A stretch of DNA of 61,870 nucleotides, counting the filler, from Dimargaris cristalligena (lineage: Eukaryota): assembly GCA_003614675.1 (NCBI GenBank). It is 21 parts of 21 records of this genome, joined end to end, with 100 filler letters (N's around TTAATTAATTAA, not from the genome) between each part and the next. Parts side by side here need not be neighbours in the genome. Positions count along the whole stretch, not along the records: positions 1 to 2,900 come from ML004084.1; 20 more parts are not named here. One strand, given 5' to 3'. Of this stretch, positions 1 to 59,162 are shown piece by piece (the first letter of the stretch is position 1; each line of letters opens with the position of its first letter). A program made the position numbers and the translations under genes. Under the pieces are notes generated by a model. That model searched no databases and was not told the DNA's origin. It saw only the letters and a program-made list of their open reading frames with translations.

Positions 1-355
1 GTTGGCTTATTTATCTTACCCTAGTCTTAGTAATATCCTTCCCCCGGGACCTCCCTCTGGAGTTGTCCCTATACATATATAACTAGGCCCCATTGGGACC
101 AGTTAGATTCCTTAGCTTATCCTAACCCCTAGTTTACCCCCAATAAACTTTATATACACTTACTCCCTTTTTACTAACTAGTAAGTGTGCCTACTGCATA
201 TCCCTTACCTATACCTGTACTTATAGCCTTTATTAGTTAGTATGGTGCCTGTACTTAATGCTAGCAGCCTGCTTAGCCAAGCCTAAGCCCCACCTACTAT
301 TAGAAGCCTATCCTTGGGGCTCTTAATAGACTAAGAGTGGTTAACCTGGGTAACA
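1..355 (+). mobile_element. LTR family A, 3' part (truncated by contig start)
   Basis: Aligns by eye with the solo LTR at 34558-35124. Contains TATATAA and AATAAA and ends ...GGTTAACCTGGGTAACA. Confidence 0.85.
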
Positions 356-701
356 AACCCATTTAATATCTTTCAATATTGATACTCTAGTCACTCTATC
401 TTCAGTTTATAATATAGGTGGAATTCAGTGCAGCTGTATAAAGTTTTGAATAATGGATGTATGGGGAAATATGTGGGAGATTCATTTTTAAATAGAGACT
501 TTTACCTCATTTAATAGATTTATCATTATACAGCCTGGTTAAACTTTTTCCATATGTTTTGCTCAAGCCATCCCCAATCAATCTCTCCACAAGAGACAGT
601 AGTATTACCTTTGCCCTCCCAGTCTACATCCCTAAACTAATAGGCATTTAGGCTAACTTCTGTTTCTTGACCATAGTTATCTCAACCTGGTAGGCTATCT
701 C

Positions 702-924
702 TGTTGAAGAATATATTCCTACATATTCTTTATTCTATCCTATTTTTACCCAATTACATTAGTTTATTCTGCTATCATGAGATCATTCATGGTAGCCACT
801 TATATTTCACCCCACAGAAATTACAGTTCAATAAAACTAACCACCTAGAGGTACCTATTGTCCTCTTGCTTCTTTCTTCCCTTACTTCCAGTTTTATTTC
901 CTTTATGACCTTAGTATTTCAACA
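702..924 (+). mobile_element. LTR family C, 223-bp solo LTR-like element
   Basis: TGTTGAA...TTCAACA inverted termini and internal AATAAA. Flanked by ATCTC/ATCTT (5-bp TSD with one C>T). Other copies at 19766-19988 and 60688-60910. Confidence 0.85.
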
Positions 925-959
925 ATCTTTAACCCCTCCCAGATCTCTGGGTCATGTCA

Positions 960-1073
960 TTACACCTGTATCTAATGCTAGTAGCCTACTTAGCTGAGTC
1001 TAAAGCCCCACCTACTTTTAGAAGCCTATCTTCAGGACTCTTGATGGACTAAGGGTAGTTAACTAGGGTGACA
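960..1073 (+). mobile_element. LTR family A, 3' fragment
   Basis: CTAATGCTAGTAGCC...AGAAGCCTATC...GTTAACTAGGGTGACA matches the family A end. The left boundary is approximate. Confidence 0.75.
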
Positions 1074-2900
1074 AATAAAGAAGGCCATATATGTCAGTAT
1101 CCACAGTTTCCATCAAACTAGTTTTAGATAGTAATATATACCAAGGAGAGAAAGAGCAGGGAAGGGGGGTATAACCTTAGCTATTTTCAAATCAAATAGA
1201 ATGAGCATATATTGAAATGTAAAAACACTCTTAGAGCTACAGAATGAGAGAGCCCAGCTAACTAACTAGTCCCCAGTTGCCACCAAACTGACAAATAATC
1301 AATCCACAAATTTACCCATCTTTCCTGTGCCTTCCCAGATTCAATCTTGGCCTTAGTTTTGGCTACTAATACTTCAGTGGGAGTGAGTATCTGACTGGAA
1401 TTGTTGTCTTGGCTCTTGTCATATTACTTAGCAATCAATTTACCACTACTACAACTACTACTATGGTCAGCTTTTTTCAACTTCCTGGATTTTTTACTTT
1501 TTCTATAAGTGGTGGAGTAAGGGGCTATAAAGATGTATAGATGGGACACAATTAGTATATGCAAGAGTTAGGTGAGTTACTTCAATGGGGTATGTCAAGT
1601 CTGAGGGATTAGTGTAGTTCCAGTTTCAATGTAAAATGGGTTTGCCTAATGCAATACTGAGGCAGGAGGTAGAAACCACCCTGGTATTTCATTGGAATAT
1701 ATGTAAACAAATCACCCTGGGATGGAGGTAGAACTTACTTGGTAACTCTCCCACCTTTTCCTTTCAACTTAAGGGAACCCCCAATGAGATTATTGTAGGC
1801 CCTCATGTGGCCCAATGAATTGGACAGTGTGGCATAGCAAAAAAGAAATAGGTTACAAATTCAAGTGATGAGACTGTTGAATTAAGTAAGTAAGATACAC
1901 ATTTTATTAGGGAAATATAGCAAAGGAGATGTAATAAAGAAATATATTAGTGGTAGGAATTCTAGTAAACTGAAGAGCATCTACGGAGCAGCCATAACAC
2001 CTATTATATAGCTAGTCCTAATTCTTATGAAGTATGACTGCCAGTACTCACTAGATATGGGGTCACTCCCATCAATAGTAGAGTTTTTGGGAGAGAGCCA
2101 GTGGACAAGAGGGGGCCGTGATAGCATCCTATCCTATCTGCTTCAGGTGATGAGTGCCTCAGAAGTTGGGTTATTGATATGGTGGACTGGAGGCATTCTT
2201 CATCAATGACCAGGGCTTCTATTTGTCTAACACCCTGGTCATTCTGGTTTTGAGGCATGTCATTGTCAGATAAGGGTGGTATTGCATTGGTATCATTAGG
2301 ACTGTGGTTAGTCATTGGTAAGGATGTAACAAGACAATTGGGTGTAGCTGAAGGGGAGGAGGGAGGGGGAAAACAAATACAGGCTGATTGTGCTTCCATC
2401 TCTTTACTGAGATTTCAAACTAAGGTCAAATAAAGGGATCTAAAAAATGGAGATAGTTGAATAGAAAGAGCTATGCTTAACTAAGTCATGTAAGAAATGT
2501 TACTATCCTAAAGCCCTTTGGTAAGCAGTTGGCATGTTAACCACAATAGGAAAATTGGCAGGTCTTAACACAGTGATTGCAGAAGCACAGGCAAATCACA
2601 GGGTGTGAGGGATACACCTCACTGTAATCACTACTATTTGAACCCAACTTAGTACATAGGCTTGCTACAAGACACCTTCATGCTCTAGCAGGTAATGTCG
2701 CTATTATTGATAAGAAGTTATAGAATGAGTTGATTTATTATTTAATATTAAAACCAAGATGTGATAGTACCAGGTTAGGCACAGTGTATAGTGAACCTTG
2801 GAGAATTCCATACCTGTATGTCATTTTACCAATTTGTTATTCCAAATAGTAAAAAGGGGAGTGAATGGGGAACAATGGTAGGTAGTGTAGGAGATATTGT

Positions 2901-3000: not shown

Positions 3001-3177
3001 CAGCCAAACTGTTTGGCGAAGTGGGTGTTGGGCAGATCAAAAGGCTGGAAGTTACTGTAGCCTCATATTACCAATATCCGGGCCAAACAATGGCCACCAC
3101 CATCACCATTGCCATCGTTACAAAACTTGCGATCAATGACGGAGAGTGGCCCTTGCCGAACTGCCAGTTCGATATTA

Positions 3178-3210
3178 GATTTGACTTGATTTGATTTGAT
3201 TTGATTTGAT
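3178..3210. repeat. (GATTT)n microsatellite
   Basis: Directly visible pentamer run with one variant unit. Confidence 0.85.
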
Positions 3211-5233
3211 GCCGGTGAGTCGAGGAACGGGAACAATGCCCATTCCAGCTGACAAACGCTGTTTACCTTTGGTAGTCGAAGAAGAAGGTGGTGGGGGAGT
3301 AGTGGTGTGGTAATAGGAATCTATAATTTAGCCAGACCGTACAATGGCGCTGAAACTGAGGCCTTCTGGGAACCTTCCGAGTTGACCCTCTTATAGAAGG
3401 AGCCAAGGAGGGAGGAGGGGATATTGCCACCAGTCGAGGGCCGGGGGACTCTTGCTCTTAAGGTCAACTATGGAGACAGCCCTGAACCGCTAGATATTAG
3501 CGTCCAACTGTATTTTTTGTTGGTTGGTATCCCAGCCTCGCCCCATTTATAAATCACCGATACTAATATAATATATATATATATATATAATGCGAAGGTG
3601 AAAAGCGTTCATTATTAACGTCAAAAGTAACCACCATTTGCGCAGTGGCCTCCTTTCGTTCACTCGTTCGTTCGTCAGTTCATTCATTCATTCCCGTTTG
3701 CCCTATAGGAACACGATATAGACGGTTGATTGACGCGCGCGGGGAGGAGGGGGGCAGGTCCATCTCCATCGGTTGGCCTCTCCACTCGACTTTCCTTTGA
3801 ACCCGTGTTGGTCCCAAGCCATAGCCCGCGCTGATCCCTTGGATTGTGATCCGTCCTGTCGAGGATTATAGTAGGTGTAATATAGCAGCCCTCCCCCCTT
3901 CTCTCTCTCCCTCCCCCCTGTTTTGCCCGACCCTCCCTCCCTCTTCCTTGTCATTCGTCCATCCCCCACCACCACCCCTTTCTTCTTCCACTTCCCTCTT
4001 TTCAACCTCCCTTTCATTGGATTGCTCCCGTCCCTGATGCTTGGAATAGAGGGTGGTTTATACATACACATATTTAAATATATATATATGTCTATATAAA
4101 CCCGCCCTTTTCCCCTCCTCCATGCACATTTTAACATTACTATCTCCTATTCCTCCATTTACTTGTCATTTCCAGCTAGTAGTTACCCTGACTATTTCCT
4201 CCCAGCAGCCGTTGCCCACCCTTCTACCTACCGACCTGCCTAACTGTGTGTCGCACACATCCCGTGCCCATAGATATATATTGCAACCACTCTCGGTCTC
4301 CTCCTTATCACACCCCTTCCACCAGTAGTGTGGTTTATCAGCGTTACTCTCTCCCTCCATTACTCTTGGTGCCCATTAATCGCCTCACGACCCCTTTAAA
4401 TAGCACTGGGACACCCACCTGATCACACTTGGTTTTACATAAACCCTCTTCTCTCTATTTCCCCAACCCTATACTCCTACCTCTCCACCCCTTTTCCCCT
4501 AACAGCCTGCTTTCATAGCCACTGAAGATAGCTATTAGCCCGGGTGCCCGGATTATAAAGTCTGCCTATCTATCGGTCTATTTATCTATCACAGTGTTCC
4601 TTGACTAAGCTTTGACGGGTGTAAAATCTTGACCGTCTCTTGGTAACAAATCATCAGCCTATTCCTGGTTTTATCCACCCATTTAATACCCTCCCCCGAC
4701 CCCGCTTACTATACATTATCACCGCTGACCTGAAACCTTCCGAACACCGAGGGTTTCGCTGGACTCTATATAGTAGTATAAATCAACCAAGCGCTGTTTT
4801 ATTTTTCGGTCGCCTATTAAAACCACCAGCGGACTTTATCATCACACATTGCATTCTCTCCGCCTTCTTATAGTTTGATTGTTGTCCTTCTCAATCTTCC
4901 GTGTATTGATACCACCAGTCCACGTACTCTGGCCGATATCTTGGCCCTATATTACTCACTTTTACATATATATATCTGGAACTTGTTCGTACATTGTCGT
5001 CATTTTCCTTCCTTGAGTCCCGTTATTGTATTTCTCTTTAAGCCTGTTCACTTTTACACCTCTCTGGCTTTAATATCACACGCCTAGTCACATGTACCAA
5101 AGCGTACCTTTTATATATATATATATATACATACCCACATACACCACTTTCCGGGTCCTTTTCTCCCACTCGCCCTTCTCCTCAGTCATTTTTTGTCCCC
5201 CCCTTCACTTTATATTCCATTGACCTGCCTACC

Positions 5234-5783
5234 ATGGCTGCCGTCTTACGTCCCACCCACCACCACCGTAAACGCAAAGGGATACCCATTCGGAGTCCCC
5301 GTAAGGATGACGACCTACACTACCAACCCGGCGTTATTTTCAAATTCCCCTTAGTCCCTGCGGAATTGTCGGTTTTTGAACTCGACGACTGCCGTCTCTC
5401 CCCCTGGCTCTTGGCGGGTACCTGGCCGGCCCGGTCCACGACCAAGTTTAACCCCCACCACTCTATCCTAGACACTTCAGTAGAGGCCAGCGGCGGTGTC
5501 CCCAACCCCTCCTATACCAACGGGACTTCCGCGGGTCCCGCGCCTTCAACCGGGACCTCTGCTGCTGCTTTGCCAACTGACAAGTCTCACCTTACTAAAC
5601 GGTCCGCTGCGGACGCTCACCTGACCACCAACCACGGCACCTCTAAACTTAAACGTTCCGTACCCGCGCCTTCCTCCTCCTCTAATACTAATAATGGTCG
5701 TAAGGCCCGCTCCGCTAGCGTAGCCAGTCGGGAAAGTCCCCGTATTCGGCCTCGCGGCAGTACGGCGACCCACCACACTAATA
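5234..5783 (+). CDS. Hypothetical protein, 5' part (basic N-terminus, Ser/Thr/Pro-rich); possibly a transcription regulator
   Basis: ACCATGG start context and an open frame to the contig end with gene-like GC/CpG content. NLS-like HRKRK. No recognisable domain within the window. Confidence 0.65.
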
Positions 5784-5883: not shown

Positions 5884-5982
5884 ACCTCTTGGAACAGCAA
5901 GTCTATCATCACCTTTCCCTTTTTATCACCTATCTTTTTGAATAAAGTTCAGTTTTTAAGGATTTGAGTTCAGTTCTTTACA
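5884..5982 (+). mobile_element. LTR family B, 3' end
   Basis: ...AATAAAGTTCAG...GTTCAGTTCTTTACA is shared with the starts of the pieces at 20790-20850 and 32541-32653. Similarity stops right after TTTACA. Confidence 0.7.
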
Positions 5983-6605
5983 GGGAGGTTAAGTAGCATA
6001 AAATCCGGTGACTACATTAGATATTATCTTAATAAAATAACAAACTGTAATATTAAATAAACCCTTAATTTTTAGGGGCTGGTGGGCTTTATCATAATAC
6101 CCATGACATTACCAAATCACAGGGATATCTTTATGTAGCTATTTTATTGAGGTAGGGCAACCCCCATCCATATTGGATATAACCATCATCTACTTCTAAG
6201 GTACCAGAGGGTGCACATGGATATTATGGAGGTGGTCTGTGGATGGTGGGGGTATCTATGAAGCATTAACACAGATTAGCAAGTAGATGACTCCATGTTT
6301 GACAGTTTGATAAAATCAAGCACAATCTATATAATTACTATTTCTGTTCCAGCCATTATAATACTCCTAAACCCAAATAAATATCTCAGGCTTTTTAGTT
6401 CAATACCAAAATGACTACTCCTGCTCAATAGTTTGTCATTTCAGTTGACCATAGCTGTTATCACTGCATCATCACATTTAAAAATATTAATAGGACAGAG
6501 TTAGGGTTTTACTTACAAAGGAATATAATTTTTAAACTTACAGAGAGGACCCATATCAATATAAATGTGTCCCTCTTAAAAAAATATATATTTCAAGAGC
6601 TGCAC

Positions 6606-7155
6606 TATCAGCCCTCTTAATCCTACCTAAATACAGGAGTACTGATTGTCCCATCCTATCTTGCCTTATAGTGCTATATTACCCCACTTCCCCTCATATA
6701 ATCCCCTAGGACCAGCCCCAATGCTTCACACACAACACTCTGCCAATTGATACAATGGCCCCCCGGTTCCCATGAGAGTCTTCTGGAAGCAAGGACACCT
6801 GGTCAGGCCCCTCCCTTATTCTTAACTAGTCTTCATTATATTCTCCTTGGGACCTCTTATCATAAACAGTCCCCACATATAAATAGCTGGGCCCCTCTGG
6901 GACCAGTTAGTTCCTTAGCTTATTCCTACCTCTATAGTTTACCTCCAATAAACTTGCTATACACTCACCCATTGTACTGACTAGTAAGTATGCCCACTGC
7001 ATGACCCTTGCATTAGCCTACACTTATCTTTTATTGGTTAGTACTGATCCCACCCTGACACTAGTAGCCTGCTTGGCTGAGTCTAAGCCCTATCTACCAT
7101 TAGAAGCCTACCCCCGGGACTCTTGACAGACTAAGAGTGGTTAATCCAGGTGATA
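6606..7155 (+). mobile_element. LTR family A, decayed solo LTR
   Basis: Termini TATCAGCCCTC...GGTGATA are transition-mutated versions of TGTCGGCCCTC...GGTGACA. Flanks TGCAC/TACAC form a 5-bp TSD with one G>A. Confidence 0.8.
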
Positions 7156-8175
7156 TACACATTATCCAACTAGAAGATAATGCTATTACTATATCTACTA
7201 ATATTATCTAACCAATAATATTTTGTATAATAATATTTTTCTGGTAGTGCCATCAAAGTTGATGTTACTCTTGTGACCATAAGTGCATGTTAGTAGTAAT
7301 TATACTTATTCTACTCACCACCCATGCAGGTTGCTGTATGTTAAACAATCAATATTTTCAGTGGCCAATGTCTTATTGGTATTATAAAGTACAGACTGGT
7401 TGCTGATTATCAAGCAAAAAGGCCAACCAATACAGCTGATGAAGGCCATTGAAATCAGTTGAGTCATATGTATTCTATAGCCATATACAGTATAAATGTG
7501 TGCATTGGTACTATTTCTAGCCCACTATTCCCCATTGGCATGCCTTTGGATTGCTCTAAAGGGGCCAAGACCCACTAATGCATATCCTTGTTATTTTACT
7601 GTTAAACCCAATACCATGACTATAGTGTGATACTATCATTCCATGTGTTATATACTGGTGAAGTGCGGCGCAACAGTGTGGGATTTAAAATGTAATATTT
7701 AGACGATAGCAACAATACCCCAGCTTGATCTGAAAATATCCAACCCTACCAATGCATATTTTATTATTTCAATTGGTTGAATCTCCACACCTGACAGTGG
7801 CTGCAATCCTCATAAAATAGGTGACATTAGTGACCATATAATCCCAATTTTAAAGTATTACGGATGGCCAGGCATTTCTCATTTATTGAGACTTCTAGTT
7901 ATTCGTTAAGTGCACTATAGTCAACTATATATTTATTCATTTTAACTGAGGCCCAGACGAGGGTGCAAAAATTGAAAAATTGTAATATATACTACATAAA
8001 ATTGATATACAAGAACTTTTGGGAGGGCTGGCGGTAAAACCCAAACCAATAATGATTAACCTAGTGCCACCTTGGACTTGCTCATGGCACCACTTCATAC
8101 TCCGCCACATTCAATGGGAGGGAGGGTGGTCATCGATAGATTTATTGAATTCCCATGGCCCTGTGGAGGGTCGAG

Positions 8176-14844: not shown

Positions 14845-16047
14845 CTCTTTCTCCGTAAACCCCTCCAGCAGTTTGCCGAGTGTCTGCACCGGGAGGCAGG
14901 CCTCCGTGGACTGGTATCGGTTCCGAATCGAACGGACTGTCCGGCTGATCTGCTTCGGTCGGTTTATACCAATCTGCTGAGCCAGGCTCCCGACCACCTG
15001 CTGCGCCAATTCCTCCTCACGGGAAGTGCGTCGCCGGCCCATTGGTATGCGCGGCAGACGCGTTTCACTCAGTCGCTGGCCGCCCTCTCTATGCTGGGGT
15101 ATGTGCTGGGCTGGGGGGATCGCCACCTGGATAATATCATGCTGGCTGACGATACCGCAGCCGTGATGCACATTGACTTTAGCGTTTGCTTCGGCCAGGG
15201 CGCCCGACTCCGGGTCCCCGAAACCGTGCCCTTTCGCCTGACCCCCAATTTTGTGCGGGCCTTGGGGGCGACCGCCCTCAGCCCGGGCAGTCCTACGCCG
15301 CCAGCTATTCTACTTCCCACCTACACTGCCGTGACACTGTTGAACTCTACCCCAGGGTCCCCGGAAACCCGGCCCAAGTGGCAGTTTCAATCCTCGCTCT
15401 CTGGACTTCCCCGATCCGTAGTGGCCGTGGAATCCCCACTAGCGAATATACACCCCCATTTCCGGGTCGTCGCTGCGGAGACACTGTCCCTCCTACAAAA
15501 CCATGCCTCCGAGTGGGAGGCGCTCTTGACGCGGATGGTTTGGCACTCATACCCCGAATGGAATCCCGGGTACGATCAGGTGGGGGATGAAATTAATCAC
15601 CTCAACCACCTCTTTAACTACCCTGAGGAGAAGGGTCCGTTGGACTCTATCATTCCCGAGCCTACCTGCCGCGTCGCCGAAGCCGAAGCCTCCGCTGATC
15701 AATACCCTACCCTAGACTGGAGCGAGGAAAGTGTAGGTAGTCCGATTTTAACGTCCTGGAACGACCATAGCCTGGATCTCGACATTGCGGGGGTATCTTT
15801 GACAGCCAAGGTGCGCGCAGGTGAGGGTAGCCCTCCCGTTGATTCCTGGGGTGAAAACCGGCCACATACCGCTGACCAGCCGGCGCGCCGGCGGGCCCAG
15901 TCCATCATGGGGGCCATACACCACCGACTGTTCCCCGTCGACCCAACGGTGGCGGCTGCAACTGCCATGACCCAGGCCGACCGCGTCACCGCCCAGGCCA
16001 TTGATTTGGATAATCTAGCTCGGATGTTTGAGGGGTGGATCGCTTGG
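14845..16047 (+). CDS. SMG1: PIKK-family kinase SMG1, C-terminal kinase lobe and FATC (partial; final V-stop seen in the duplicate at 16425-16485)
   Basis: SMLGYVLGWGDRHLDN, HIDFSVCFGQGARLRVPETVPFRLT and the FATC QAIDLDNLARMFEGWIAWV* match SMG1-type motifs (DRHLDN, LRVPE-VPFR, EGWxAWV) rather than TOR, ATM or ATR. The frame is open from the contig start. Confidence 0.88.
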
Positions 16048-16147
16048 NNNNNNNNNNNNNNNNNNNNNNNNNNNNNNNNNNNNNNNNNNNNNNNNNNNNN
16101 NNNNNNNNNNNNNNNNNNNNNNNNNNNNNNNNNNNNNNNNNNNNNNN

Positions 16148-16424
16148 AACTGTTGTATTGCTCAGCGATTATCTGAACGAGTTCGGGGGGATACTCGACG
16201 GTTCCGACTGCCTGCCCCAGGGCGTGAATACAGTCAAATACGGCTAGTCGGAATTCGGGATCATCGAACCAACGCATAGTAGAAGCCAGGTCACGGCCCG
16301 CGACTTGCGCCAGTTGCCTGCCCCAGTCCAATTTACCAGGACTTTTGATACTGGAAAGACGAAATTGATTCAAGGCAGCAGTAAAGCGAATTACCAGGCG
16401 ATGCTGCAACGCCACCGGTACCGA
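16148..16424 (-). other. Inverted coding fragment beside a 100-N scaffold gap (probable chimera or misassembly)
   Basis: An open minus-strand helical-looking frame abuts an exact second copy of 15993-16047 at 16425-16479. Confidence 0.65.
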
Positions 16425-17295
16425 CCAGGCCATTGATTTGGATAATCTAGCTCGGATGTTTGAGGGGTGGATCGCTTGGGTCTAGAGGATGCCTGAAGTA
16501 TATCTATTCGGCATACTAGCCTAATCCTCCTAAATATAAATGGCTCCCTGGGGTTAATTAAATCGCTGGCTTGTAATATACTCGACAGCAGGTAACGAAT
16601 TCGTTTGGTTTCGTTAAGGACACCGATGCCGCTTAATGACTAGATGTAGACTGCTCCACCATTGGTATTGGTTCGAATGGGCTAACTAGGGAAATTAATA
16701 GGTGTTTGAGCGAAAATAAACTGACATTAATAGAAGCGATGCAGGACCCCGATAATTCATCAACCGACTCCATAATGCTGCTAACCAGTTTCCGGGGTCC
16801 AAGAGGAGGAGAAGGGCGTCTGGAATCTTATTATTGCTGTAACTTAGTTCAATCACAGCCTAAAGGTTGGCGACAGGGTAAATAGGGAGGTTTTAGCTTA
16901 ATCCCCCAGGGCCTTGCGGGCGTTCTCCTATGCCCGGCCCTCCTTAATTTGTCGTAGTAAAAGGAGAGCGCCATTTGAATGGCAGTGCAAGATCATGGTC
17001 CGATTTCCCCCCCTTTAGCTAGCCGACTGGTTCCAAAAGTGTTTGGGTGGGCTCTAGCGGCGTACTAAACCAATCGCCACCTGGAAATCCCCTTAAAGAT
17101 GCTTATTCCACCTTTGCCTCCTTCCACAGTCCGAACTTGGCATTGGTTTCCTATTTGCCATTTCTTTGGCCCGTCCGTTGGATTTCCGAAGGCCATTGCT
17201 AATTTTTTATTCAATTACGTGGAGAACTAAAAGAGCCCCAGCAATCCCTCCATTGTCTATCTCTTCTTTCCGCCTACCCTGCTCGCCTGGCTATC

Positions 17296-17816: not shown

Positions 17817-20689
17817 TGTTCCCCATTCACTCCCCTTTTTACTATATGGAATAACAAATTGGTAAAATGACATACAGGTATAGAATTCTCCAAGGTTCAC
17901 TATACACTGTGTCTAGCCTGGTACTATTGCATCTTGGTTTAAATATTAAATAACAAAATCAACCCATTCTATAACTTCTTATCAATAATAGTGACATTAC
18001 CTGCTAGAGAATGAAAGTGTCTTGTAGCAAGCCTATGCACTAAGTTGGGTTCAAATAGTAGTAATTACGGTGAGGTGTATCCCTCACACCCTGCGATTTG
18101 CCTGTGCTTCTGCAATCACTGTGTTAAGACCTGCCAATTTTCTTATTCTGGTTAACACGCCAACTGCATACCAAAGGGCTTTAGGATAGTAACTTTTCTT
18201 GCATGACTTAGTTAAGCATAGCTCTTTCTATTCAACTATCTCCATTTTTAGATCCCTTTATTTGACCTTAGTTTGAAATCTCAGTAAGGAGATGGAAGCA
18301 CAATCAGCCTGTATTTGTATTCCCCCTCCCTCCTCCCCTTCAGCACCACCCAATTGTCTTGTTACATCCTTACCAAGGACTGACCACAGTCCTAATGATA
18401 CCAATGCAATACCACCCTTGTGTAATGATAACATGCCTCAAACCCACAATAACCAGGGTGTTAGATAAATAGAAGCCCCAGTCCTTGGTGAAGAATAACT
18501 CCAGTCCACCATGTCAATAACCCAACTTCTAAGGCACTCATCACCTGAAGCAGATAGGATAGGATGCTATCACGGCCCCCTATTGTCCACTGACTCTCAC
18601 CCCAAAAACTCTACTATTAATGGGAGTGACCCCATATCTAGTGAGTACTGGCAGTCATGCTTCATAAGAATTAGGACTGGCTATATAATAGGTGTTACGG
18701 CTGCTCTGTAGATGCTCTTCAGTTTATCAGCATTCCTACTACTAATATATTCCTTTATTACATCTCCTTTGCTATATTTCCCTAATAAAACGTGTATCTT
18801 ACTCACTTAATTCAACAGTCTCATCACTTGAATTTGTAATTTATTTATTTTTATTATACCACATTGTCTGATTCATTGGGCCTTATGAGCGCCTACAACA
18901 ATCTCATTGGGGGTTCCCTTAAGTTGAAAGGAAAAGGCGGGAGAGTACCAAGTAAGTTCTACCTCCATCCCAGGGTGATTTGTTTACATACATTCCAATG
19001 AAGTACCAGGGCAGTTTCTACCTCCTGCCTCAGTATTGCATTAGGCAAACTCATTTTACATTGAAACTGGAACCACACTAATCCCTCAGACTTGACATAC
19101 CCCATTGAAGTAACTCACCTAACTCTTGCATATACTAATTGTGTCCCATCTATACATCTTTATAGCCCCTTACTCCACCACTTATAGAAAAAGTAAAAAA
19201 TCCAGGAAGTTGAAAAAAGCTGACCATAGTAGTAGTTGTAGTAGTGGTAAATTGATTGCTAAGTAATATGACAAGAGCCAAGACAACAATTCCAGTCAGA
19301 TACTCACTCCCACTGAAGTATTAGTAGCCAAAACTAAGGCCAAGATTGAATCTGGGAAGGCACAGGAAAGATGGGTAAATTTGTGGATTGATTATTTGTC
19401 AGTTTGGTGGCAACTGGGGACTAGTTAGTTAGCTGGGCTCTCTCATTCTGTAGCTCTAAGAGTGTTTTTACATTTCAATATATGCTCATTCTATTTGATT
19501 TGAAAATAGCTAAGGTTATACCCCCCTTCCCTGCTCTTTCTCTCCTTGGTATATATTACTATCTAAAACTAGTTTGATGGAAACTGTGGATACTGACATA
19601 TATGGCCTTCTTTATTTGTCACCCTAGTTAACTACCCTTAGTCCATCAAGAGTCCTGAAGATAGGCTTCTAAAAGTAGGTGGGGCTTTAGACTCAGCTAA
19701 GTAGGCTACTAGCATTAGATACAGGTGTAATGCCATGATCCAGAGATCTGGGAGGGGTTAAAGATTGTTGAAATACTAAGGTCATAAAGGAAATAAAACT
19801 GGAAGTAAGGGAAGAAAGAAGCAAGAGGACAATAGGTACCTCTAGGTGGTTAGTTTTATTGAACTGTAATTTCTGTGGGGTGAAATATAAGTGGCTACCA
19901 TGAATGATCTCATGATAGCAGAATAAACTAATGTAATTGGGTAAAAATAGGATAGAATAAAGAATATGTAGGAATATATTCTTCAACAGAGATAGCCTAC
20001 CAGGTTGAGATAACTATGGTCAAGAAACAGAAGTTAGCCTAAATGCCTATTAGTTTAGGGATGTAGACTGGGAGGGCAAAGGTAATACTACTGTCTCTTG
20101 TGGAGAGATTGATTGGGGATGGCTTGAGCAAAACATATGGAAAAAGTTTAACCAGGCTGTATAATGATAAATCTATTAAATGAGGTAAAAGTCTCTATTT
20201 AAAAATGAATCTCCCACATATTTCCCCATACATCCATTATTCAAAACTTTATACAGCTGCACTGAATTCCACCTATATTATAAACTGAAGATAGAGTGAC
20301 TAGAGTATCAATATTGAAAGATATTAAATGGGTTTGTTACCCAGGTTAACCACTCTTAGTCTATTAAGAGCCCCAAGGATAGGCTTCTAATAGTAGGTGG
20401 GGCTTAGGCTTGGCTAAGCAGGCTGCTAGCATTAAGTACAGGCACCATACTAACTAATAAAGGCTATAAGTACAGGTAAATATCAGGGACATACAGCAGG
20501 CACACTTACAAGTTAATACAGGGGCAGTGAGCATATATAGGGCTTATTAGGGTAAACCAGGGGGTAAGAATAAGCTAAAGAATCTAACTGGTCCCAATGG
20601 GGCCTAGTTATATATGTATAGGGACAACTCCAGAGGGAGGTCCCGGGGGAAGGATATTACTAAGACTAGGGTAAGATAAATAAGCCCCT
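17817..20689 (-). repeat. Near-identical reverse-complement copy of 1-2874 (segmental duplicate or alternative repeat copy)
   Basis: Position here is about 20690 minus the position in piece 1. It has the same LTR A, LTR C and LTR A fragments and the same 97-aa spurious ORF. Confidence 0.95.
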
Positions 20690-20789
20690 NNNNNNNNNNN
20701 NNNNNNNNNNNNNNNNNNNNNNNNNNNNNNNNNTTAATTAATTAANNNNNNNNNNNNNNNNNNNNNNNNNNNNNNNNNNNNNNNNNNNN

Positions 20790-21247
20790 TTTATTATCTA
20801 TCTTTTCAAATAAAGTTCAGTTTTCAAGGATTTGATTTCAGTTCTTTACAACATCTATCCTTTATTAGTTAGTACTATGCCCCCATCCTAATGCTAGTAG
20901 CCCACTTGGCTGAGTCTAAACCCCACCTACTATTAGAAGTCTATCCTTGGGACTCTTGGCAGACTAAGAGTGGTTAACCTGGGTGACACTAAGACTAAAG
21001 TATCACAAAATAGGCCAACCAGATGGCCATTAGGGTCCAGAAGACTCTTCTGGTTACCATCAGAGTCTCCAGATCAGCACTTGAGTAATTAGTATGAAGA
21101 TGCAAAGTCCAGAAGGGGAAAGGTTATATGGCATAGGGTAATCCTATAGTACTGGGGGTGACCATGGGAAGGTTAATATAGTGCTATAAGGTCTAATAGG
21201 GATAGACACTAATATATCTATATTAGGGTAGATTAGATAGTCTGACA
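20790..21247. mobile_element. Nested LTR stack: family B end (20790-20850), family A 3' part (+, 20851-20988), family A 5' part (-, 20989-21247)
   Basis: Each segment ends at a precise terminus (TTTACA; GGGTGACA; GTCTGACA) and abuts the interior of the next LTR. Confidence 0.75.
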
Positions 21248-21345
21248 TCCTGCAAAGGAAACAAAAAAATTATCTACTAATTGAAGTACACACTTTCCAT
21301 TCAAAACTACCATTCATTTCCAATAAACCATTATTATCACTAGTA

Positions 21346-21765
21346 TTATTTTTGAGCCTTCAACAATTCCATTTCCTTGTTTCCTATGCCCCTATCCAAA
21401 CCTTCACCATGAGTTGCAGCACCCCCTAGACCACTTGATCTGTGTTCCTGAACATCCCAAAACCTTTTATATTGGGACCCTCCAATAAGGCATTGGAGCA
21501 GCCTGAGGTAGGTGGTGCATCTACCACACATCCTTCTCAGCCTTGCACACCATATTTAGGGCCTCCCAGCATTACATATATGTGGCAAGAGGGCTAACAT
21601 TATGTGTCTGGCATTATCTCAATGACACACTTTGCCATTTAACAGGCATCTGCATGGCTGACTGTTAAATGGACTCCCAAATGCAACTCTTTGGAACCAG
21701 ACCTCTTTATGCCAACCTATCACTCTTCAGTAGTAATGGTGTAATAGTTTATAGTGACTATCCTC
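21346..21765 (-). pseudogene. Possible decayed C-terminus (Cys/His zinc region) of a non-LTR retrotransposon ORF2
   Basis: HYKLLHHYY*...PCRCLLNGKVCH*DNARHIM...IWCARLRR is reminiscent of L1-type C-termini, with several stops. No RT core seen. Confidence 0.25.
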
Positions 21766-22813
21766 AGTATTGTGGCTGGAACTCAGTTAATGTATAACCA
21801 GAGTAGTAATGTAAACTAGGGTAGTCTAAATGTCTTTACCATTTCGACCTAAACTTTTAATTGGAAATTCCAGTACAGTCTGCAGTGTGCATGTCTAACT
21901 GGATTAGACATGAACCTGTCCTGGTCATTACTGATGTGTCCCAGTTATTTGTCTTCCAAATTGATGCCAGAACCCCAATGGTTCCATTCATTTCATGATT
22001 CTTAGCACTGTGGTAATTTTTCATCAAATCTGCTATATCTAACATCTGGTCTCCATTGCTAAGTTGCTATCATTTGCCATTCACCCTGCACTAACTGATT
22101 CAGTGTAAATAGTGTCAACATTCCCTCTCTATTAATAAATGTGTCCATTTTATATGAGGATCTCCAGCAAAATGAATTCCTGCTTTGAGTATTCTTTCTA
22201 GTGTTTTCAGAGTCACCCCCAAGATTTTACAGAGTTTCCCAAGTTATCAGAGTTCTATCCAAGTTCCTGAATTTCCCCAAGTTTTATTGGTGTTTTACTA
22301 TTATTTTGTGTATATATTTTATCATATTATATATACCTGACTTTATTGGTAGTAGGAATCCCTTCCATCCTCTGTGCCTGTGTCCCTCCTAAGCTCCCAA
22401 CAAAGACCATGTACCCCCACTACCCTACAGGCTTTATATGTATTAGTCATAGTAGTAAATGGAAGTGAAAAAAGCCAATCATGGGAGGTATGGAAGGTAA
22501 ATATAATGACTTATTGCAAAATAAATGGGGCCAGTGAATATTGAGGGATGCTAAGAAAAGAATGGAGGGGGGCAATGATATCAAAATAATAGCAAAGTTT
22601 GAAGGGGGTAGGCAACGGTGGCCTCTCAAGAAGGAGGAATTATTCTGGTTACTTATATAACCTTTTGAGGGCCCTTGGAGGTTGCCAGATTACAAGGTTG
22701 ACACAAAAAAGAACCAATAGGTATAATATAATAAACCAGAAATACTCAGAAATATATCAGACTTGTAGATGTAAGGTAATGAAAGGTGAACTTTTTAATG
22801 TAAACTGGTAGTG

Positions 22814-23201
22814 TGTTGGACTATCTAATCTACCCTAATCTGGACATATTAGCATCTATCACTATTAGGCCTTATAGCACTATATTAACTTTCCCATGGT
22901 CACCCCCAGTACTATGGGATCATTCTCTATCATATAAACTCTCCCCTTCTGGACTCCACCTCTTCACACTAATCACTGTAGTACTGATCTGAAGGCTCTT
23001 CTAGTTACTGTCAGAGTTTTCCAGACCCTAATGGCTGTCCAGTTGACCTATTTTCCCTATACCTTAGTCTTAGTAGTATCCTTCCCCCAGGACCTCCCTC
23101 TAGAGTTGTCCCTGTGTATATATAACTGGGCCCCCATTGGAACTAGTTAGATTCTTTAGCTTATTATTACCCCCTGGTTTACCCTAATAAGCCCTATATA
23201 T
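22814..23201 (+). mobile_element. LTR family A, 5' two-thirds, interrupted
   Basis: Starts TGTTGGACTATCTAATC. Shares CCCATGGTCACCCCCAGTACTATGGGAT and GGACCTCCCTCTAGAGTTGTCCC with other copies. Confidence 0.8.
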
Positions 23202-23912
23202 GGGTGAAGTTTAACCCAGCTATATAGGGTAAAATCCATATAGGTGGGTCATCATATTCAGGTCACATGACCTTTGGGGATGGACATAACCTTCCCCTGC
23301 CTATATTATCCACCCATCCATCACTACTAATATAAGCTAAGGAGATTTAGTCTATATTGTAATGGGGAGGGGGCACACCCAAAAAGGGCAGGGGCAGTGC
23401 TGATACTCAATTGAGTACCAGCATAGTTGGTGGGGTTATATTTATGCTTATAATTGTACTAACCCCATAATACAATTATAAGCACTGTCCTTTAAAGCTC
23501 TGCCCTATTTGTTTTAACTAAAAAGAAAGGGCACTAAAAGGTACCACCAAATGGTAACAAGGGAATGTCAATTGGTGAATGGGAGCCAGAGGCTTCTAAA
23601 TTTGAATGGGAGTAGCCAACTGGTAAATGGGGGATAGAGATTCCCTTTTTTGCATGGNNNNNNNNNNNNNNNNNNNNNNNNNNNNNNNNNNNNNNNNNNN
23701 NTTAATTAATTAANNNNNNNNNNNNNNNNNNNNNNNNNNNNNNNNNNNNNNNNNNNNCCTGAACTATCGAGTCTGACTTGCCCCCTTCACTATATATCTA
23801 TATATATATATAGCCTATTGTCGGATTACTAACCCGTTCCTAATTTCTTATCCACTTTGTATTGGCCCACCTCTTTTATCGGTTTCCATTATCCTCCCTT
23901 CACACCCACCAG

Positions 23913-29482: not shown

Positions 29483-29960
29483 NNNNNNNNNNNNNNNNNN
29501 NNNNNNNNNNNNNNNNNNNNNNNNNNTTAATTAATTAANNNNNNNNNNNNNNNNNNNNNNNNNNNNNNNNNNNNNNNNNNNNCGTTGAAAATCTCGATTT
29601 AGCCTCCCACTTTCAAATTAACTTAGATATACTAGAATTTAAAGCAGTTCAATCTGTTAAATAATCGATAGGACTACTCACTAAATGTATCACCAAATGG
29701 GTTTATTTTGTACTGTGGGCTGTTCCACTGTCGCAGGTTATATAATAGTGGCAGTTGGGAAAAGGAGGGGGAGGAGAGAAAAAAGGGAGAGTGGGTGTGG
29801 TATGCGATGTCAAGAGTAGACGCGACAACAACGGACAGCGATTCCCACCTTTCCGTCGCCGGGACACTATAAAAGTCAACAACTATGAAGGAGGGGAGGG
29901 AAACGCCACCGAATCCAACGAAGGCATAGTAAGAGGATGGCTGACAACGACGAGGGACAT

Positions 29961-30674
29961 TTACTCGGCGGCCACGGCAGCGGCAGCGGGGGCAGCAGCT
30001 TCGGCGGGGGCAGCGCGCTCCTGGAAGTCCTGGGAGATGGGGTGAAGGATGGGGGCTTCTTCCTTAGGTTCGAGGATAGTGACCATATCGGGGAGGGGGT
30101 TCTTGGGGCCGAGACGGCCGGTGGGGTCCCAGTCGAGCATGATCTTGACCTTGATACCCAGCACACCCTGGCGCATCTCGACGTGACGGACGGCGAAGTC
30201 AATGTAGTCCTTGGCGGGCTGACCGGAGTGGATCATGAAACCGTCGGAGAACTTCATGGACTTGGCACGAGCGGCGCGGAGCTTACCGGAGACGATTACT
30301 TCGCAACCCTTGGCACCGGACTCCATCACGTAACGGAGGACACCGTAGCAGGCGCGGCGGACGGCGATACCGGCCAGCAGCTTGTATTTGAGGGATTCGC
30401 ACTGGGCGATAGCGCACAGACCGCGGGCATTGACCTTTTCGGCGAACAGCTCGACGGTGTTCTCGGCGAAACCGAAACGCTTCTGGACAATGGAGGTCAA
30501 TTCACGGATGCGACGACCCTTCTCACCCAGCACGTCCTGGGGGTGAGTGGCCCGGATGATAATTTCGGTACGGGCGGGGGTGACACGCACTTCAACACCG
30601 GAGTAACCTTCCTCGCCCAGAGAGCGCTGGAGGAACTCGTTCAGTTCGGCGTAGAACACACCGTCGGCTACGAA
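29961..30674 (-). CDS. RPS3: 40S ribosomal protein uS3, main exon (short first exon not found)
   Basis: [14 protein letters not shown]...[11 protein letters not shown]...[24 protein letters not shown] acceptor at 30678-30675. Confidence 0.98.
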
Positions 30675-31829
30675 CTAAGGCGAAAAGGAAGGGAAGGGCA
30701 AAGAATAAGGGTAAACGGGTTTAGTTGAACAATTCGGGTGCCTGGTAGAAGAAGGCTGGAGAGCATTCCAATCTCCCCCATTCGCATTCCGAAAAAGGAT
30801 TCGGGCAGATTCCGAAGATGTCATACGACGCCACATCGCCAATAGGTCAGCCGATGTATCAGTTATCGTCCAATATCCATCCATCCGTCTCGTTTGTATA
30901 ACAATCGGTCAACACACACGGACGGCGTTCAGATAGAGACAGTTCTTCGAGGTATCGCATCGGCACATTATGGCGAATCCCATCGATTGTCGAACATGAC
31001 CATATGGATATCACTGAGGTACAACACGGCATCTGCCTTGCTGGAATCACGGCAGGCGGTTGGCAGATGGGCGATTCAACGCGTGGACGAACAAACGGAC
31101 AGACGGACGGATGGATGGATGGGTACGCGTAGGGTCGATACGGAGGCGGCGGTGCGAGCGGGAGGGCAGGTTGAATAATGAATCGGAGATTCTGGTTATA
31201 AGAGAGGTACGACAGATATTAATTAAACAAGCCAGATCCCCTAGTTGAAGCCCAGGTTTGTCCATTTAGTAGTCCCATTGCGTGACCACAATAGATTGTT
31301 CTTTCGGCTCGGGGTAGACTGAATAAATAAGACGGACTATACTTTAAGTATAACCCCCTCCATCTGGTGGCTTACTTCACATGTCTTGAGCCTGGCATAC
31401 CCATCGCGGTATTCCCTAACCTTCCCACTGGCTGGTTGGATACTCCTATTTCGAACGAGTTTAAGTCATCAGCCCAAGCCCTAGCATATGGTTAGCCAGC
31501 CTGGCCTTGGAGAGTTCAGACCATCTTATCTTCAGTTACCAGCAGCATTCAGTTATACTTCTTCCTTTGGGTGTGTCTTTGACCCACCAAAGTCGCCCTG
31601 TCTCTCACCTTCTCTGAATCGGCTGACCTTCAAGTGGAGGGTGTCCCTCCGTACCGCGGCGGTTCCCCCGACATCACTTCCCATCGTCTCTCACCATTGA
31701 CTTAGTCCTACTTATCATATACTTACCGTTCTTATTCCAACACACACACATATATATCTACACAACCTATCGTGCCTTTTTTGGACTCCGCCCTTGGCAT
31801 AGATATAAACACCTCATTTCATCGTGACT

Positions 31830-32440
31830 ATGTTCGAAAAGACCCTCACCGACCTTATCAGGGGCATCCGGGCCAATAAGCGCAACGAGCATCTCTACAT
31901 CAACACCTGCCTCGACGAAATTCGCACCGAGCTCAAGTCCAATGACCTCTACATCAAATACCTGGCGGTGGCCAAACTGAGCTACCTGCACATGCTCGGT
32001 TACGATTGTTCGTGGGCGGCCTTCCATATCGTCGAAGTCATGGCGGCTCCTAAATTCATGTACAAGCGTTGCGGCTACTTGGCCGCCACCCAGTGTTTCC
32101 AGCAGGATACGGAGGTGCTGATGCTGTGCACCAACCTGTTGCGTAAGGATTTGACGTCCAACACACCGGCGGAGGTGGGGGTGGCCTTGGATGGGTTGGC
32201 CCATATTGCCTCCCCCGATTTGGCCCGGGATCTGAGCCAGGATACCCTGAACTTGCTCCACCACTCCAATCCTTACATCATCAAGCGGGCCACCCTGACC
32301 CTGTACAAGGTCATTCTGAAATACCCCGAGGCGCTCAAGGTGTGTTTCCCGCTGCTCAAAGATCACCTGGAACACCCGGATCCGTCCGTCGTGTCGGCCG
32401 TGGTCAACGTGGTTTGCGAATTGGCGCGGAAGAACCCATA
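31830..32440 (+). CDS. APL5: AP-3 complex delta subunit, N-terminal part
   Basis: MFEKTLTDLIRGIRAN...KLSYLHMLGYD.SWAAFHIVEVM...DPSVVSAVVNVVCELARKNP. Confidence 0.95.
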
Positions 32441-32540: not shown

Positions 32541-32653
32541 CTCCCCCTTGCTGCCACCTCTTGGAACAGCAAGTCTATCATCACCTTTCCCTTTTATCAC
32601 CTATCTTTTTGAATAAAGTTCAGTTGTCAAGGATTTGAGTTCAGTTCTTTACA
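32541..32653 (+). mobile_element. LTR family B, 3' end
   Basis: Near-identical to 5884-5982 and ends TTTACA. Confidence 0.7.
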
Positions 32654-34557
32654 ACAGGGTAGTGGCTGGGTGAAATAACCTTGACATACAAAACATAAAT
32701 AGTTTTTTAATACTGGTGAGTTATGCCTGTTGTTAGGCCAGTGGTTTGAGGCCCCTCCCTTCCAAAGCTCAGGCTGGGGTTAGACCCCTTGTCCTCCCCG
32801 GGGTTGGCAGGGTCACTGGATGTCAGGTTTGGAGGGCTCAAAGTGCCTGGGTGAAATATAGTGAACTCGGGAAATGGTCCCTTGGCTACTCAAATTGGCT
32901 CGGAGCTGTTATCAGAGGTTGAACTGGGGTATGGTGCAAAATACTCCATGTGGAATGGTCCTAAACTCCGGTCATTGGAGTTAGGTGCTGGAGGAGCCAT
33001 GGTGGCTATGTGCTGAAAATAAGATAATAAAATTTAAGAAAAATGAAAAATTGACTTGGTTGAAGTCTTCGGCTGATACTGCTGGGTAAAATACTGGGTG
33101 AAGTTAAAGTAGATATTTATTCTGAATAATAAAAACTTATCTTGAAGATAACTTGCCATTTTAAGGGCCAACTGGGGACACTATATATATGTAAATTAAT
33201 ACTATGAACTTAGAGTTATATTAATACTTTAGGACATTGTCCTCAGATGGACTAACAACCATAAAACCATGAAGGGAAAACTGGCTGGGTCTTCAAGTTT
33301 GACCACTGTGTAAAAGAGAAAGAAAACATATATGGGAAAATGGAAGACAAAACTGCCTCAGATCCACCAGGGCATTTCTTGAAGGTAGGATATGGAAGAC
33401 TTCGACATTGCTCACTTATTCCAGTGTGAGCACTGTTTACAGCAAAGGCATAATTATGGATCTGGGGTTCACAGGTGTCATGGGGTGGAGTATAACAACT
33501 AGTTAGTCTCATGGAAAGGGAAAATTGTCCTGACCCTTGGCAGTACACCTGTCATTTATATAGCCCTTTAGAAAGTAGGGGTGCATGGTCATATGCAAGG
33601 ACTTGGGAGAGTGGGGCATGTAGGGTGGGAAAATTCCCTGCCACTAAAGAGTACTAGAAAAATGGGGAATAGCAAAGTTTTTAGTTGCCACTAGGATCTA
33701 GGGAACTGAAATGGGGAAATAATACATGAGTAGGATTATCTATTTATTATTTAGAATGGGAAAGCCAAAAGTACATATATAATGGTAAGAGGAATAAGAG
33801 GTAATATTAAATGTGAAATAGTGAAGACAACACCCAAAGGGTAAACACAAGGGATTTAGTTACAAATTCCCATAATGTAAGAAGTCATCAGAAAAAAGGA
33901 GTAGCCAGGGTTTCTACTTGTGAATACACCGGGCCATAGTAGGAATGTATATAAAGTTGGCATTAACTAGAATAGACCCATGTTTATTCCAGTGATAAGG
34001 TGTGCCACACATTGCAATAGTCATTCCATAAAACTATGGGGTGGACAAGGGAGGGCATATATGGCATCTCAGGGACCTTGGTATAGTAAGCCTTATCAAC
34101 CACCAGGAAGAGTTTTCCTGGCTCAGTGTCAGACACTCGACCAGTCTGTACAGAGTCTAGGTGGTCCAACCATGCTGTAATTCCTGCATGGTATTTGTTC
34201 AGAGCTCCCATTGTTGGGACCAGTGCCAACTGTATTTCTTGGGATGAGTCTGTGGAATCCTCTGGTACCCCAACAGTGATGACAGAGAATGAATTGTCAG
34301 CCTCCAATAACGCTGAATGTGTCATAAGATGAGTATAGCATAGGGAGTTGGCATTGGCTTGCCCAGATAGTTGGTCAGTCCCACCCATTTGTGTAGTGTT
34401 GGTTATTTTAGGCTGCCACTCATAGATTAGGTTGGAGGTGGCCTGGTGCTTATTGCTCTAGAGATGGGGAATGGAGAAGGGAGTTATATAAATATATATT
34501 TGAGTGTAAGTTGGACAGCCTGTCAATGTACTTCTTAAGCCATCTGATACAAGTGGT

Positions 34558-35124
34558 TGTCACCCGGGTTAACCACTCTTAGTCTGTCAAGAGTCTCGGG
34601 GATAGGCTTCTAATGGTAGGCTCGGCCAAGCAGGCTACTAGCATTAGGTATGGGGCACAGTACTAACCAATAAAGGTCTAGACAATCGGATTGATGCAAG
34701 GGATATACAGCAGTGCACACTTACTGGTCAGTACAAGAGAGGTGAGTGTATATAGAGTTTATTAGGTAAACTATGGGGGTAAGAATAATCTGAAGAATTG
34801 AACTGGTCCCGAGAGGGCCTGGTTATATATATGTAGGGGTGGGTCATAAGGAGAGGCCCCAAGGTAAGAAGCTACTAACTAAGGTATTGATAGAATAGGT
34901 GCCCGGGTGGCTTCGTATTGGGAAGACTCCTATGGGAACTGGAAGAGGCTTCAGATTACCATACAGAGTGAGTGGTGCAAAGAGCCAGGGGCTGGGGGTT
35001 GTATGATAAATGAGAATCCCATAGTACCGGAGGTGACCATGGGATAGTGGTTATAGTGCAATAAGGCCTAATACGGGTAGGGTAACCATTGGGTCCTGAT
35101 TAAGTCATATTAGGAGGGCCGACA
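34558..35124 (-). mobile_element. LTR family A, complete 567-bp solo LTR
   Basis: TGTC...GACA inverted termini with a perfect 5-bp TSD GTGGT (34553-34557 and 35125-35129). TATA and AATAAA on the minus strand. Confidence 0.93.
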
Positions 35125-36649
35125 GTGGTAAAAATCAGTTCATAATAACTGTGTCTATATTCTAAATGAGCACAGGCCAGTGTGTATGTAACTAGCATGT
35201 GTATTCCGTAAGTCGAATTTAATAGTGGTGTCAAATAGCATGTTTTGATAACCGCGGGTGCAGATGTCCCAATAATCCAGTATAGAGACTTACCTCAGCA
35301 CACTGGAATAGCTGTGGGCCGGGCACATCACCCACTGGATTACTAGAAGAAGGGGCCTCCTGGGGAAGACTAGATGTAAATTGGGCGAGAGCTAGCCNNN
35401 NNNNNNNNNNNNNNNNNNNNNNNNNNNNNNNNNNNNNNNNNTTAATTAATTAANNNNNNNNNNNNNNNNNNNNNNNNNNNNNNNNNNNNNNNNNNNNATA
35501 ACATGGACAATGTCCCATGTCGTGTCCCAAATAGGAAGGGTGAAGCCTTCCGCCCCTCCGTTATGTATATTATAGCTGTAGGTGGGCCAGGAGTTGCTGA
35601 TAATCGCCCTAGTTATATAATTGCAGTAGATTATGTAAAATAAGTCAACGTTAGTAATTTATTTTTTGGATTTGGGCACCCGTGCTGGTTGGGGAAGGGT
35701 ATGGCAAAATCCAACAGTGCAAGGCCCAGTAGCTGTATCACCCTTTCAGGGGTTGAGTAATGCATTGGCATCCCGGACTAGTCTTCGTGCTATACCATTG
35801 TTGCCTTGATCCTTCTGACTAAAACTCCTGCTGCTGGGCTGTAGGTATATTCTGAAGACTCTGCTTATTTGAATAGGAATACCCTCCCCTTTTTTTGGGG
35901 CATTGCTTTACTTACCTTCTAGACCACGGAGTGCTAATGGGATATATGATTAGGCAGCAGTTAGTTGTATAGGTAATGGGTAAAATTCGGCCCACTGTGT
36001 CGTGCTTAATAATCTATAGGATTAAAGCCGACTAACTATGAAGGACTAGGCACCATCATCGCCTAGTTCTATCAATGAGGCGCGGGAATTTGGTCTTGTT
36101 GAAGGATCAGCGTCCTTCAGCCATTCCTGCCACTTGATTCACATATTCCACATATCACCATTATATACCCGTCTATTATTAGTTATCATTTATATTACTA
36201 TCCAGTAGCATCTTCTATGCTGGTTCGACGCCTTTACCATTAGTCTGCTCGGCTATATAAAGCCAAGCCAATTCCTATAGTTATTCTTTAGTTAATTACC
36301 ATTTACTCCATACCCCCTTTATTAGTTAACTCGATCTATTGGATATCTCCTTTATTATTATCTATAAAGCGCCCTTCGCATCAACTGCCTGTGTGTTATC
36401 TCTTGTAAACTTGTCCGAGGCGTAGCCCTTTAATCATTTCTTATATTATAGGCTACGACACACTGTATAAGGTTTCCAAAGAGAGATATACATGAGATAA
36501 TAAGCGGAAAAATCTAATTTCAATCAGGAATATTTGCACCATCTAACGGATTTTTCGTTATACGGGCTAGTAGAATCTCCCCTATATCAACATTTAAAAG
36601 ATAAGGGTATATTGTGCCAGAATAAACATCATTGGATTGGACGATGGTA

Positions 36650-36758
36650 TGTTGGAAATTCATTTCCCCCGTCCCACTGATTCCATCTCTGTGATTGGCC
36701 CGTCCTATACTCGGGACTATATTCTAGCCATTACTATATCATTCTATACCTTGAACTT
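36650..36758 (+). repeat. 109-bp segment duplicated (inverted) at 38450-38558
   Basis: Direct comparison shows a few substitutions, mostly transitions. Identity unknown. Confidence 0.85.
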
Positions 36759-55900: not shown

Positions 55901-56194
55901 GCACCAATAGGAGAAGCCCTACAAAAATGGTGCTCACCAAAAATGATCGAACCCTTGGGTTTTGAAAAATTATATAAGTAGGGGGCATCCACGGTTCGCC
56001 ATTCNNNNNNNNNNNNNNNNNNNNNNNNNNNNNNNNNNNNNNNNNNNNTTAATTAATTAANNNNNNNNNNNNNNNNNNNNNNNNNNNNNNNNNNNNNNNN
56101 NNNNAGGGGGAAATGCTTCTGATTGCTGGCCATTATTGTACTACGTAGATGATGGCTCCTGCTAAACCCTACCAGTCCCACCTTCCATCCGTAG

Positions 56195-59037: not shown

Positions 59038-59162
59038 AAAAATGACCATACTCGTCAGGGGCAGGGGCAGGGGCTCATTCACTCGTCAGGGGCATACTTC
59101 CGATAAGTGCAAAAAATGGATTAAAAATAAAAGTAAGTAAAAAATGTGGTATGTTCACCACA
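59038..59162 (-). mobile_element. Family D element terminus inserted in the integrase 3' region
   Basis: The reverse complement reads TGTGGTGAACATACCACA... and matches the 47060 copy. Confidence 0.75.

Follow-up and report, generated by a model that had tools for sequence, protein, structure and literature searches.

RIP in Neurospora crassa is a premeiotic process that depends on RID. In fungi with methyltransferases of the Dnmt1/Masc2 class, such as Microbotryum and the rusts, repeats carry a CpG-only signature, and a CpA signature occurs only together with RID, according to the accessible sections of that comparative study (PMC4352252). The same sections describe a dominant CpG component with CpA as a second component in transposon copies of Tuber melanosporum, an ascomycete with a RID/Masc1-like gene (PMC4352252). 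In dim2-positive Zymoseptoria tritici, more than 98% of the new C>T mutations arising at mitosis fell at CA and CG was spared, with both Dim2 and Rid present, according to the part of the report available (PMC8016269). Phycomyces has 5mC almost only in repeats, in CG and CHH contexts, and the sections of that paper open to us also cite repeat-confined 5mC in Linderina pennispora, a member of the Zoopagomycota from the same subphylum as Dimargaris (PMC11258239). A survey that filtered out scaffolds shorter than 50 kb found RIP-like enrichment confined to ascomycetes; Dimargaris and CpG go unmentioned in its main text, so far as that text was available (PMC12543289). A literature search, with most subscription papers outside its scope, returned no paper on the mutation spectrum or methylome of Dimargaris.

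The repeats of Dimargaris cristalligena resemble those of Microbotryum and the rusts in their restricted CpG loss, in the presence of a DNMT1 with RFD and BAH domains and in the sparing of genes, but they differ from what the accessible text reports for those fungi in the near-complete loss of CpG and in a clear second component at CpA (PMC4352252). The CpG loss in Dimargaris can be likened to the repeat-confined 5mC of Phycomyces and Linderina as it appears in the sections available (PMC11258239). The combination of dominant CpG and secondary CpA change is shared with Tuber melanosporum, as portrayed in the part of the source at hand, although no RID/Masc1-like gene was found in Dimargaris (PMC4352252). 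Zymoseptoria tritici is alike in its CA>TA changes in repeats, which are apparently burst-free in both, whereas CG is the main target in Dimargaris and only DNMT1 was found there, a comparison limited to the sections of the Z. tritici study that were available (PMC8016269). The repeat decay works like the methylation-driven type, which is of a known kind, joined by a reproducible CpA component that is absent from the known DNMT1-only cases.

The window, that is, the whole stretch of 61,870 nucleotides analyzed here, is made up of 21 short contigs, each about 2.85 kb long, joined by linkers. CpG o/e was 0.82-1.05 in nine of the 21 pieces, which are the gene-bearing pieces 2, 4, 5, 6, 9, 10, 11, 18, and 20; it was 0.02-0.23 in the eight repeat pieces and 0.59-0.72 in four intermediate pieces. 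The first piece (1-2900) is a nested-repeat contig with a GC content of 0.39 and a longest ORF of 129 aa. It contains four CpGs (positions 45, 1984, 2117, and 2699; o/e 0.037) where base composition predicts about 108, and a count of four or fewer has a Poisson probability of about 1e-40 by hand estimate. A second repeat nest (piece 8; 20790-23657), with fragments of both repeat families described below, contains two (positions 21845 and 22616; o/e 0.018). The preliminary description had arrived by eye at the same tallies for both pieces, and the contrast that it drew with gene pieces also holds. The control gene piece at 29583-32440, for example, has a CpG o/e of 0.97 and includes an ORF (29961-30674) that we take to encode ribosomal protein S3. 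Repeat CpG o/e (0.02-0.04) is not equal to that of unique DNA (0.73-1.05), since the unique and mostly non-coding stretch 3001-5000 has a CpG o/e of 0.73-0.74. As had been supposed, only repeats show the C>T/G>A decay at CpG. CA o/e in 3001-5000 was 0.93-0.95 and TG o/e was 1.00-1.11; in gene pieces, TpA o/e ranged from 0.85 to 1.13. The four intermediate pieces (35498-38349, 41401-44249, 47293-50135, and 53171-56004) are AT-rich and may be young repeats or mixtures of unique and repeat DNA. Five degenerate tandem units of 27 bases each were observed at 49706-49856.

Family 1 is an element of about 550-580 bp with TG...CA ends and 5-bp TSDs, which we read as a putative LTR from these sequence features. 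Repeat matches place the 3′ part of one copy, with the terminal CA at its end, at 1-355 on the plus strand of piece 1, and a second, shorter 3′ fragment at 925-1073 (+). The interval 1-356 has many genome matches at 83-85%, among 40 scored of the 1417 first-look candidates for piece 1. Another repeat (694-924) is 94% identical to 60680-60910. A full-length family 1 copy at 61035-61619 on the minus strand was used as the query, and the 35-base end motif of the family gave 591 matches in the 30.65-Mb genome, compared with none for the reversed control. The family comprises subfamilies, as one marker site accompanies all six rows that retain CG at one site. Family 2, a young repeat whose end has an ACA terminus, was detected at 5915-5982 (+) and also at 20783-20850 and 32586-32653, with 294 matches in the genome. 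Pfam searches with the two longest ORFs of piece 1 and with five repeat ORFs of the window gave no match. A decayed frame at 59121-59687 (-), also without a Pfam match, is presumably integrase-like.

The preliminary description had reported changes outside CpG in decayed termini and TSDs as part of its account of 1-2900. The changes themselves are real, but they are located outside that piece. TATCAG at 6606, GTGATA at 7150 and the TSD pair TGCAC (6601) and TACAC (7156) all belong to one family 1 solo LTR (6606-7155, with its TSDs 6601-7160; +), and the TGTCGG start with which TATCAG was compared is retained in a minus-strand solo LTR (34558-35124) flanked by an identical ACCAC TSD (34553-35129).

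The mutation spectrum was obtained with motif patterns that permitted any transition; matches were ordered from the largest contig down, and the first 100 were counted by eye. Copies with a transversion or an indel inside the motif are excluded from these counts. Among the first 100 of 591 matches to the family 1 3′ motif, the three CpG sites read CG in only 23 of 300 cases, TG in 145, CA in 76, and TA in 56. The three CpA/TpG sites of the same copies were changed in 18/100, 33/96 (with four rows left out that had CA at the second site), and 28/100 cases, or 79/296 CpA>TpA changes in total. Changes were far fewer elsewhere, with 5/400 over four CpT sites, 14/400 over four CpC sites, and 27/1500 over fifteen A/T sites. 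The CpC figure leaves out two further sites (16 and 22 changes), as one of them is diagnostic for a younger subfamily; when they are included, CpC stands at 52/600. One pair of rows, possibly an assembly duplicate, was kept in the counts. At the 5′ terminus of family 1, TG had become TA in 40 of the first 100 of 335 matches. Per-cytosine rates in family 1 for CpG, CpA, CpC, and CpT were about 100 : 24 : 3 : 1, with CpG underestimated by saturation.

Family 2 is a much younger repeat than family 1 and its motif is without CpG. Among the first 100 of its 294 matches, the five CpA/TpG sites had 2, 6, 7, 11, and 10 changes (36/499, one ambiguous row excluded), compared with 4/400 at four CpT sites, 2/100 at one GpG site, and 5/2400 at 24 A/T sites. 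Nine CpA sites, spread over the two families, underlie the per-site counts; in neither family was any CpA site changed less often than any CpT site. The excess is not confined to CpG, as CpA was changed in 27% of cases in family 1 and 7% in family 2 against 1% for CpT, and the CpA component for which the preliminary description had argued is real and genome-wide in two repeat families by these eye counts. The order of contexts in repeats is CpG >> CpA >> CpC/CpT. Symmetric CHG methylation was considered and rejected, as the CAG cytosines of family 2 had 2 and 11 changes per 100 copies, against 2 and 1 at the paired CTG sites.

Among 100 copies counted at each of three termini, the terminal CA or TG had been altered in 28, 40, and 10. 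Integrase requires the terminal TG/CA for integration, and the mutations therefore post-date insertion. C>T and G>A changes were mixed within the same copy, so both strands are affected. Family 2 rows with at least two CpA hits numbered 5-6 of 100, compared with about 4.5 expected if hits were independent; there is no sign of mutation bursts, in a 35-base window of low power. Seven of 48 family 1 copies had identical TSD pairs and eight had pairs that differed by one step, the others being without a clear pair. The eight differences comprised three of CpA type, one of CpG type, two other transitions, and two transversions, and two further CpA-type pairs were detected, at 6601/7156 of the window and in the genomic locus L112. 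The latter has a CpG-free zone (4154-5517) that reaches about 400 bases past either LTR end, into flanks that are possibly repeats themselves. Across 30 reverse-transcriptase (RT) loci, CpG o/e varied from 0.05 to 0.86. CpGs that survive in long open retroelement frames lie mostly in CGN arginine codons (25/29 in L085, 9/9 in L086, and 32/36 in L089), which suggests long-term purging of CpG within active lineages. Two AT-rich RT frames on contig C55 (L092 and L094; GC 0.28-0.32, CpG o/e 0.68-0.77, one with an in-frame TGA) are probably mitochondrial intron RTs that are spared by CpG decay.

A genome search with PF00145 detected two loci, so that a cytosine methyltransferase is present, as had been supposed. 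The first, at the end of contig C729 (L033:5480-8770), has RFD, BAH, and methylase domains, and its best matches are Dimargaritales proteins; Dispira, Tieghemiomyces, Coemansia, and Linderina are all groups in which DNMT1 relatives were found. It matches a full-length protein of 1922 aa from Dimargaris cristalligena (P0121), with intact catalytic motifs, at 99% identity (1087/1091). The closest structures to P0121 are those of MET1/DNMT1 (E 1e-97 to 1e-85), and entries 9baq/9bap, which we take to be DIM-2, are far more distant (E 1e-25). The frame on C729 is open up to the contig end, and the C-terminal part of DNMT1 (the last ~490 residues) was not found in the assembly; other methyltransferase genes could therefore be absent from it too. 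The second locus, on C715, encodes a short form with DNMT2-like motifs and is presumably the tRNA methyltransferase DNMT2. Neither RID nor DIM-2 was found with PF00145, TIGR00675, or three DNMT1/DIM-2-like protein queries in this gapped assembly, and the DIM-2-like ascomycete query was answered only by the DNMT1 locus. Domain matches also included three Pre-SET and five Piwi. The identity of the DNMT1 agrees with the earlier view that the organism is non-Dikarya; its placement as Dimargaris cristalligena (Zoopagomycota) rests on this protein.

The reading that we hold to be probable, with real room for doubt, is that repeats are methylated by DNMT1, at CG far more than at CA, and decay gradually. 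A DNMT1/MET1-class enzyme would methylate transposon-rich chromatin, CG densely and CA partly, and the methylated C would deaminate to T, with the changes fixed gradually on both strands after each insertion. CpG would be lost first, and later both the CpA/TpG sites present from the start and the TG/CA left behind by CpG decay would drift to TA, at about one quarter of the per-cytosine CpG rate or below. The affected zone would extend a few hundred bases into the flanks. We infer the methylation itself and the 'defence' role assigned to repeat decay in the preliminary description; on this reading 5mC would be present, DNMT1 would write it at CA, the decay would be passive, and heterochromatin or RNAi would supply the targeting. 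For maintenance methylation acting off target, a CpA rate about one quarter of that at CpG is high, and this counts against the reading, as does the CpG-only signature tied to DNMT1-class enzymes (PMC4352252). A rival account, which we consider unlikely but worth serious attention, has CpG decaying passively and the CpA changes coming from an active, enzyme-coupled mutator of repeats in vegetative growth that works through the DNMT1-class enzyme or an unknown partner. CpA exceeded CpT 7- to 20-fold in both families, and the clock-like accumulation on both strands is what a mitotic process would give. The CA-directed mutation reported at mitosis in dim2-positive Z. tritici (PMC8016269) also speaks for it. 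Against such a mutator stand the sparing of CG in Z. tritici, when CG is the main target here, and the outcome of the DIM-2-like ascomycete query, which found no DIM-2-class locus; the one enzyme of this kind that was detected lies much nearer to MET1/DNMT1.

True RIP, a premeiotic mutation process that senses homology through a RID-like enzyme missed in the fragmented assembly and that acts atop CpG decay, seems improbable. The decay shares with RIP in Neurospora crassa the C>T/G>A changes on both strands of repeats and the preference for CpA over CpT and CpC, and a gapped assembly could hide a gene; even so, two methylase profiles and three protein queries gave only the DNMT1 and the DNMT2-like loci. 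Dimargaris differs from N. crassa in that CpG is dominant, hit at least about four times faster per cytosine than CpA in family 1, and in a RIP composite index that is near 0 in piece 1 (0.07) and negative in 30/30 RT loci. Bursts and overdispersion were absent from the counts, and TSD copies and flanks were mutated as well. Host duplicates are intact: two near-identical histone H3 genes some 20 kb from each other differ at 2/411 coding bases and have abundant CpG and CpA, and tandem Argonaute genes (L120, contig C749), about 4.6 kb apart, are 70-83% alike over about 3.5 kb, non-coding DNA included, with CpG retained, although both pairs are under selection. RIP has size and identity limits, and the two pairs lie near one or the other. 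Long open retroelement frames also persist, with 44 of 80 RT matches lacking a stop and 13 in open frames of more than 1000 aa, a count of intact-looking frames that a collapsed assembly can inflate. RIP-like index values were reported, with caveats stated, for another Zoopagomycota group in the sections available of PMC11105155. Classical RIP, to which the preliminary description had likened the pattern, is nonetheless unsupported, and the repeat decay should not be filed as RIP.

A genome-wide CpA>TpA bias that becomes visible only where selection is absent, beside a repeat-specific CpG decay, is more improbable still. A second sample differed from 10 kb of unique gene DNA by only six SNPs (two CpA/TpA-type, one CpG-type, one CpT-type, and two transversions), and a share of two CpA-type changes among four transitions falls short of significance. 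The two CpA/TpA-type SNPs and the TpA o/e of 0.85-1.13 even in gene pieces would accord with such a bias, and six SNPs do not suffice to establish that the CpA excess is limited to repeats. Base composition favors such a limit, because a 7- to 35-fold excess operating across the genome should have depleted CpA/TpG in old unique non-coding DNA, and CA and TG are undepleted in the unique non-coding stretch 3001-5000. One difference between the second sample and the reference (L113:2718-2723), a CpA>TpA change in unique DNA, makes codon 2 of a small gene a stop in the reference; the second sample reads glutamine there, and the start of the gene resembles a signal peptide. An artefact (subfamily differences or damage during amplification), or deaminase editing of retroelement cDNA in the manner of APOBEC, is the least credible account and is already largely refuted. 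Family 1 does have subfamilies, and pieces 1 and 7 resemble mosaic assembly paths, but changes at the terminal TG/CA could not have been inherited from an active master. Editing of cDNA is strand-specific, yet C>T and G>A share one copy here, and it is the 3′ base that sets the context. Three runs of the source sample also agree with the 10-kb unique stretch except for one shared base.

The CpG part of the DNMT1-driven decay that we favor is ordinary and expected, since repeat-confined 5mC is on record for Linderina, which belongs to the same subphylum (cited in the accessible part of PMC11258239). Its CpA counterpart departs from the association of CpA signatures with RID described in print (PMC4352252) and from the ascomycete-only view of RIP-like signatures (PMC12543289), as both are set out in the sections of those papers at hand. 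If the CpA excess is repeat-specific and RID and DIM-2 are truly absent, a lone DNMT1 would either methylate CA substantially or act as a mutator, and a lone DNMT1 acting at CA would bear on the origin of RIP. That the organism is a lone-DNMT1 Zoopagomycota fungus, with neither RID nor DIM-2, in which an active mutator, working through the DNMT1-class enzyme or an unknown partner, directs CpA>TpA changes to repeats is a doubtful proposition; if true, this mutator would amount to a RIP-like process in a fungus outside the Dikarya that either predates RID or arose independently of it. Where CpG and CpA decay are mixed in this way, RIP indices overlook or misread the pattern.

Piece 1 has an inverted copy in piece 7 (17817-20689; -), 96% identical, with 80 transitions and 34 transversions between them. 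The transitions fell at CpA (30), CpT (13), CpC (9), and CpG (8), with 20 ambiguous, and the differences are patchy, with only two in 212-1615 and dense tracts at 111-211 and beyond 1616. Contigs C2011 and C2163 are near-exact repeats of piece 1, with 2/2416 and 1/2095 differences between them and it. All four sequences have a common start point and are 96-100% alike, again with patchy differences, and they may be alleles, a recent duplicate, or alternative or redundant assembly paths. The pair formed by pieces 1 and 7 was kept out of the main evidence because its differences are unpolarized and patchy and the near-exact contigs suggest alleles or assembly paths. A non-haploid state has been suggested for Dimargaris cristalligena in the accessible part of PMC9866270. 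At 15748-16481, inside a kinase-like gene, a 60-base stretch occurs on either side of a 100-N scaffold gap, a duplication that looks like an assembly overlap.
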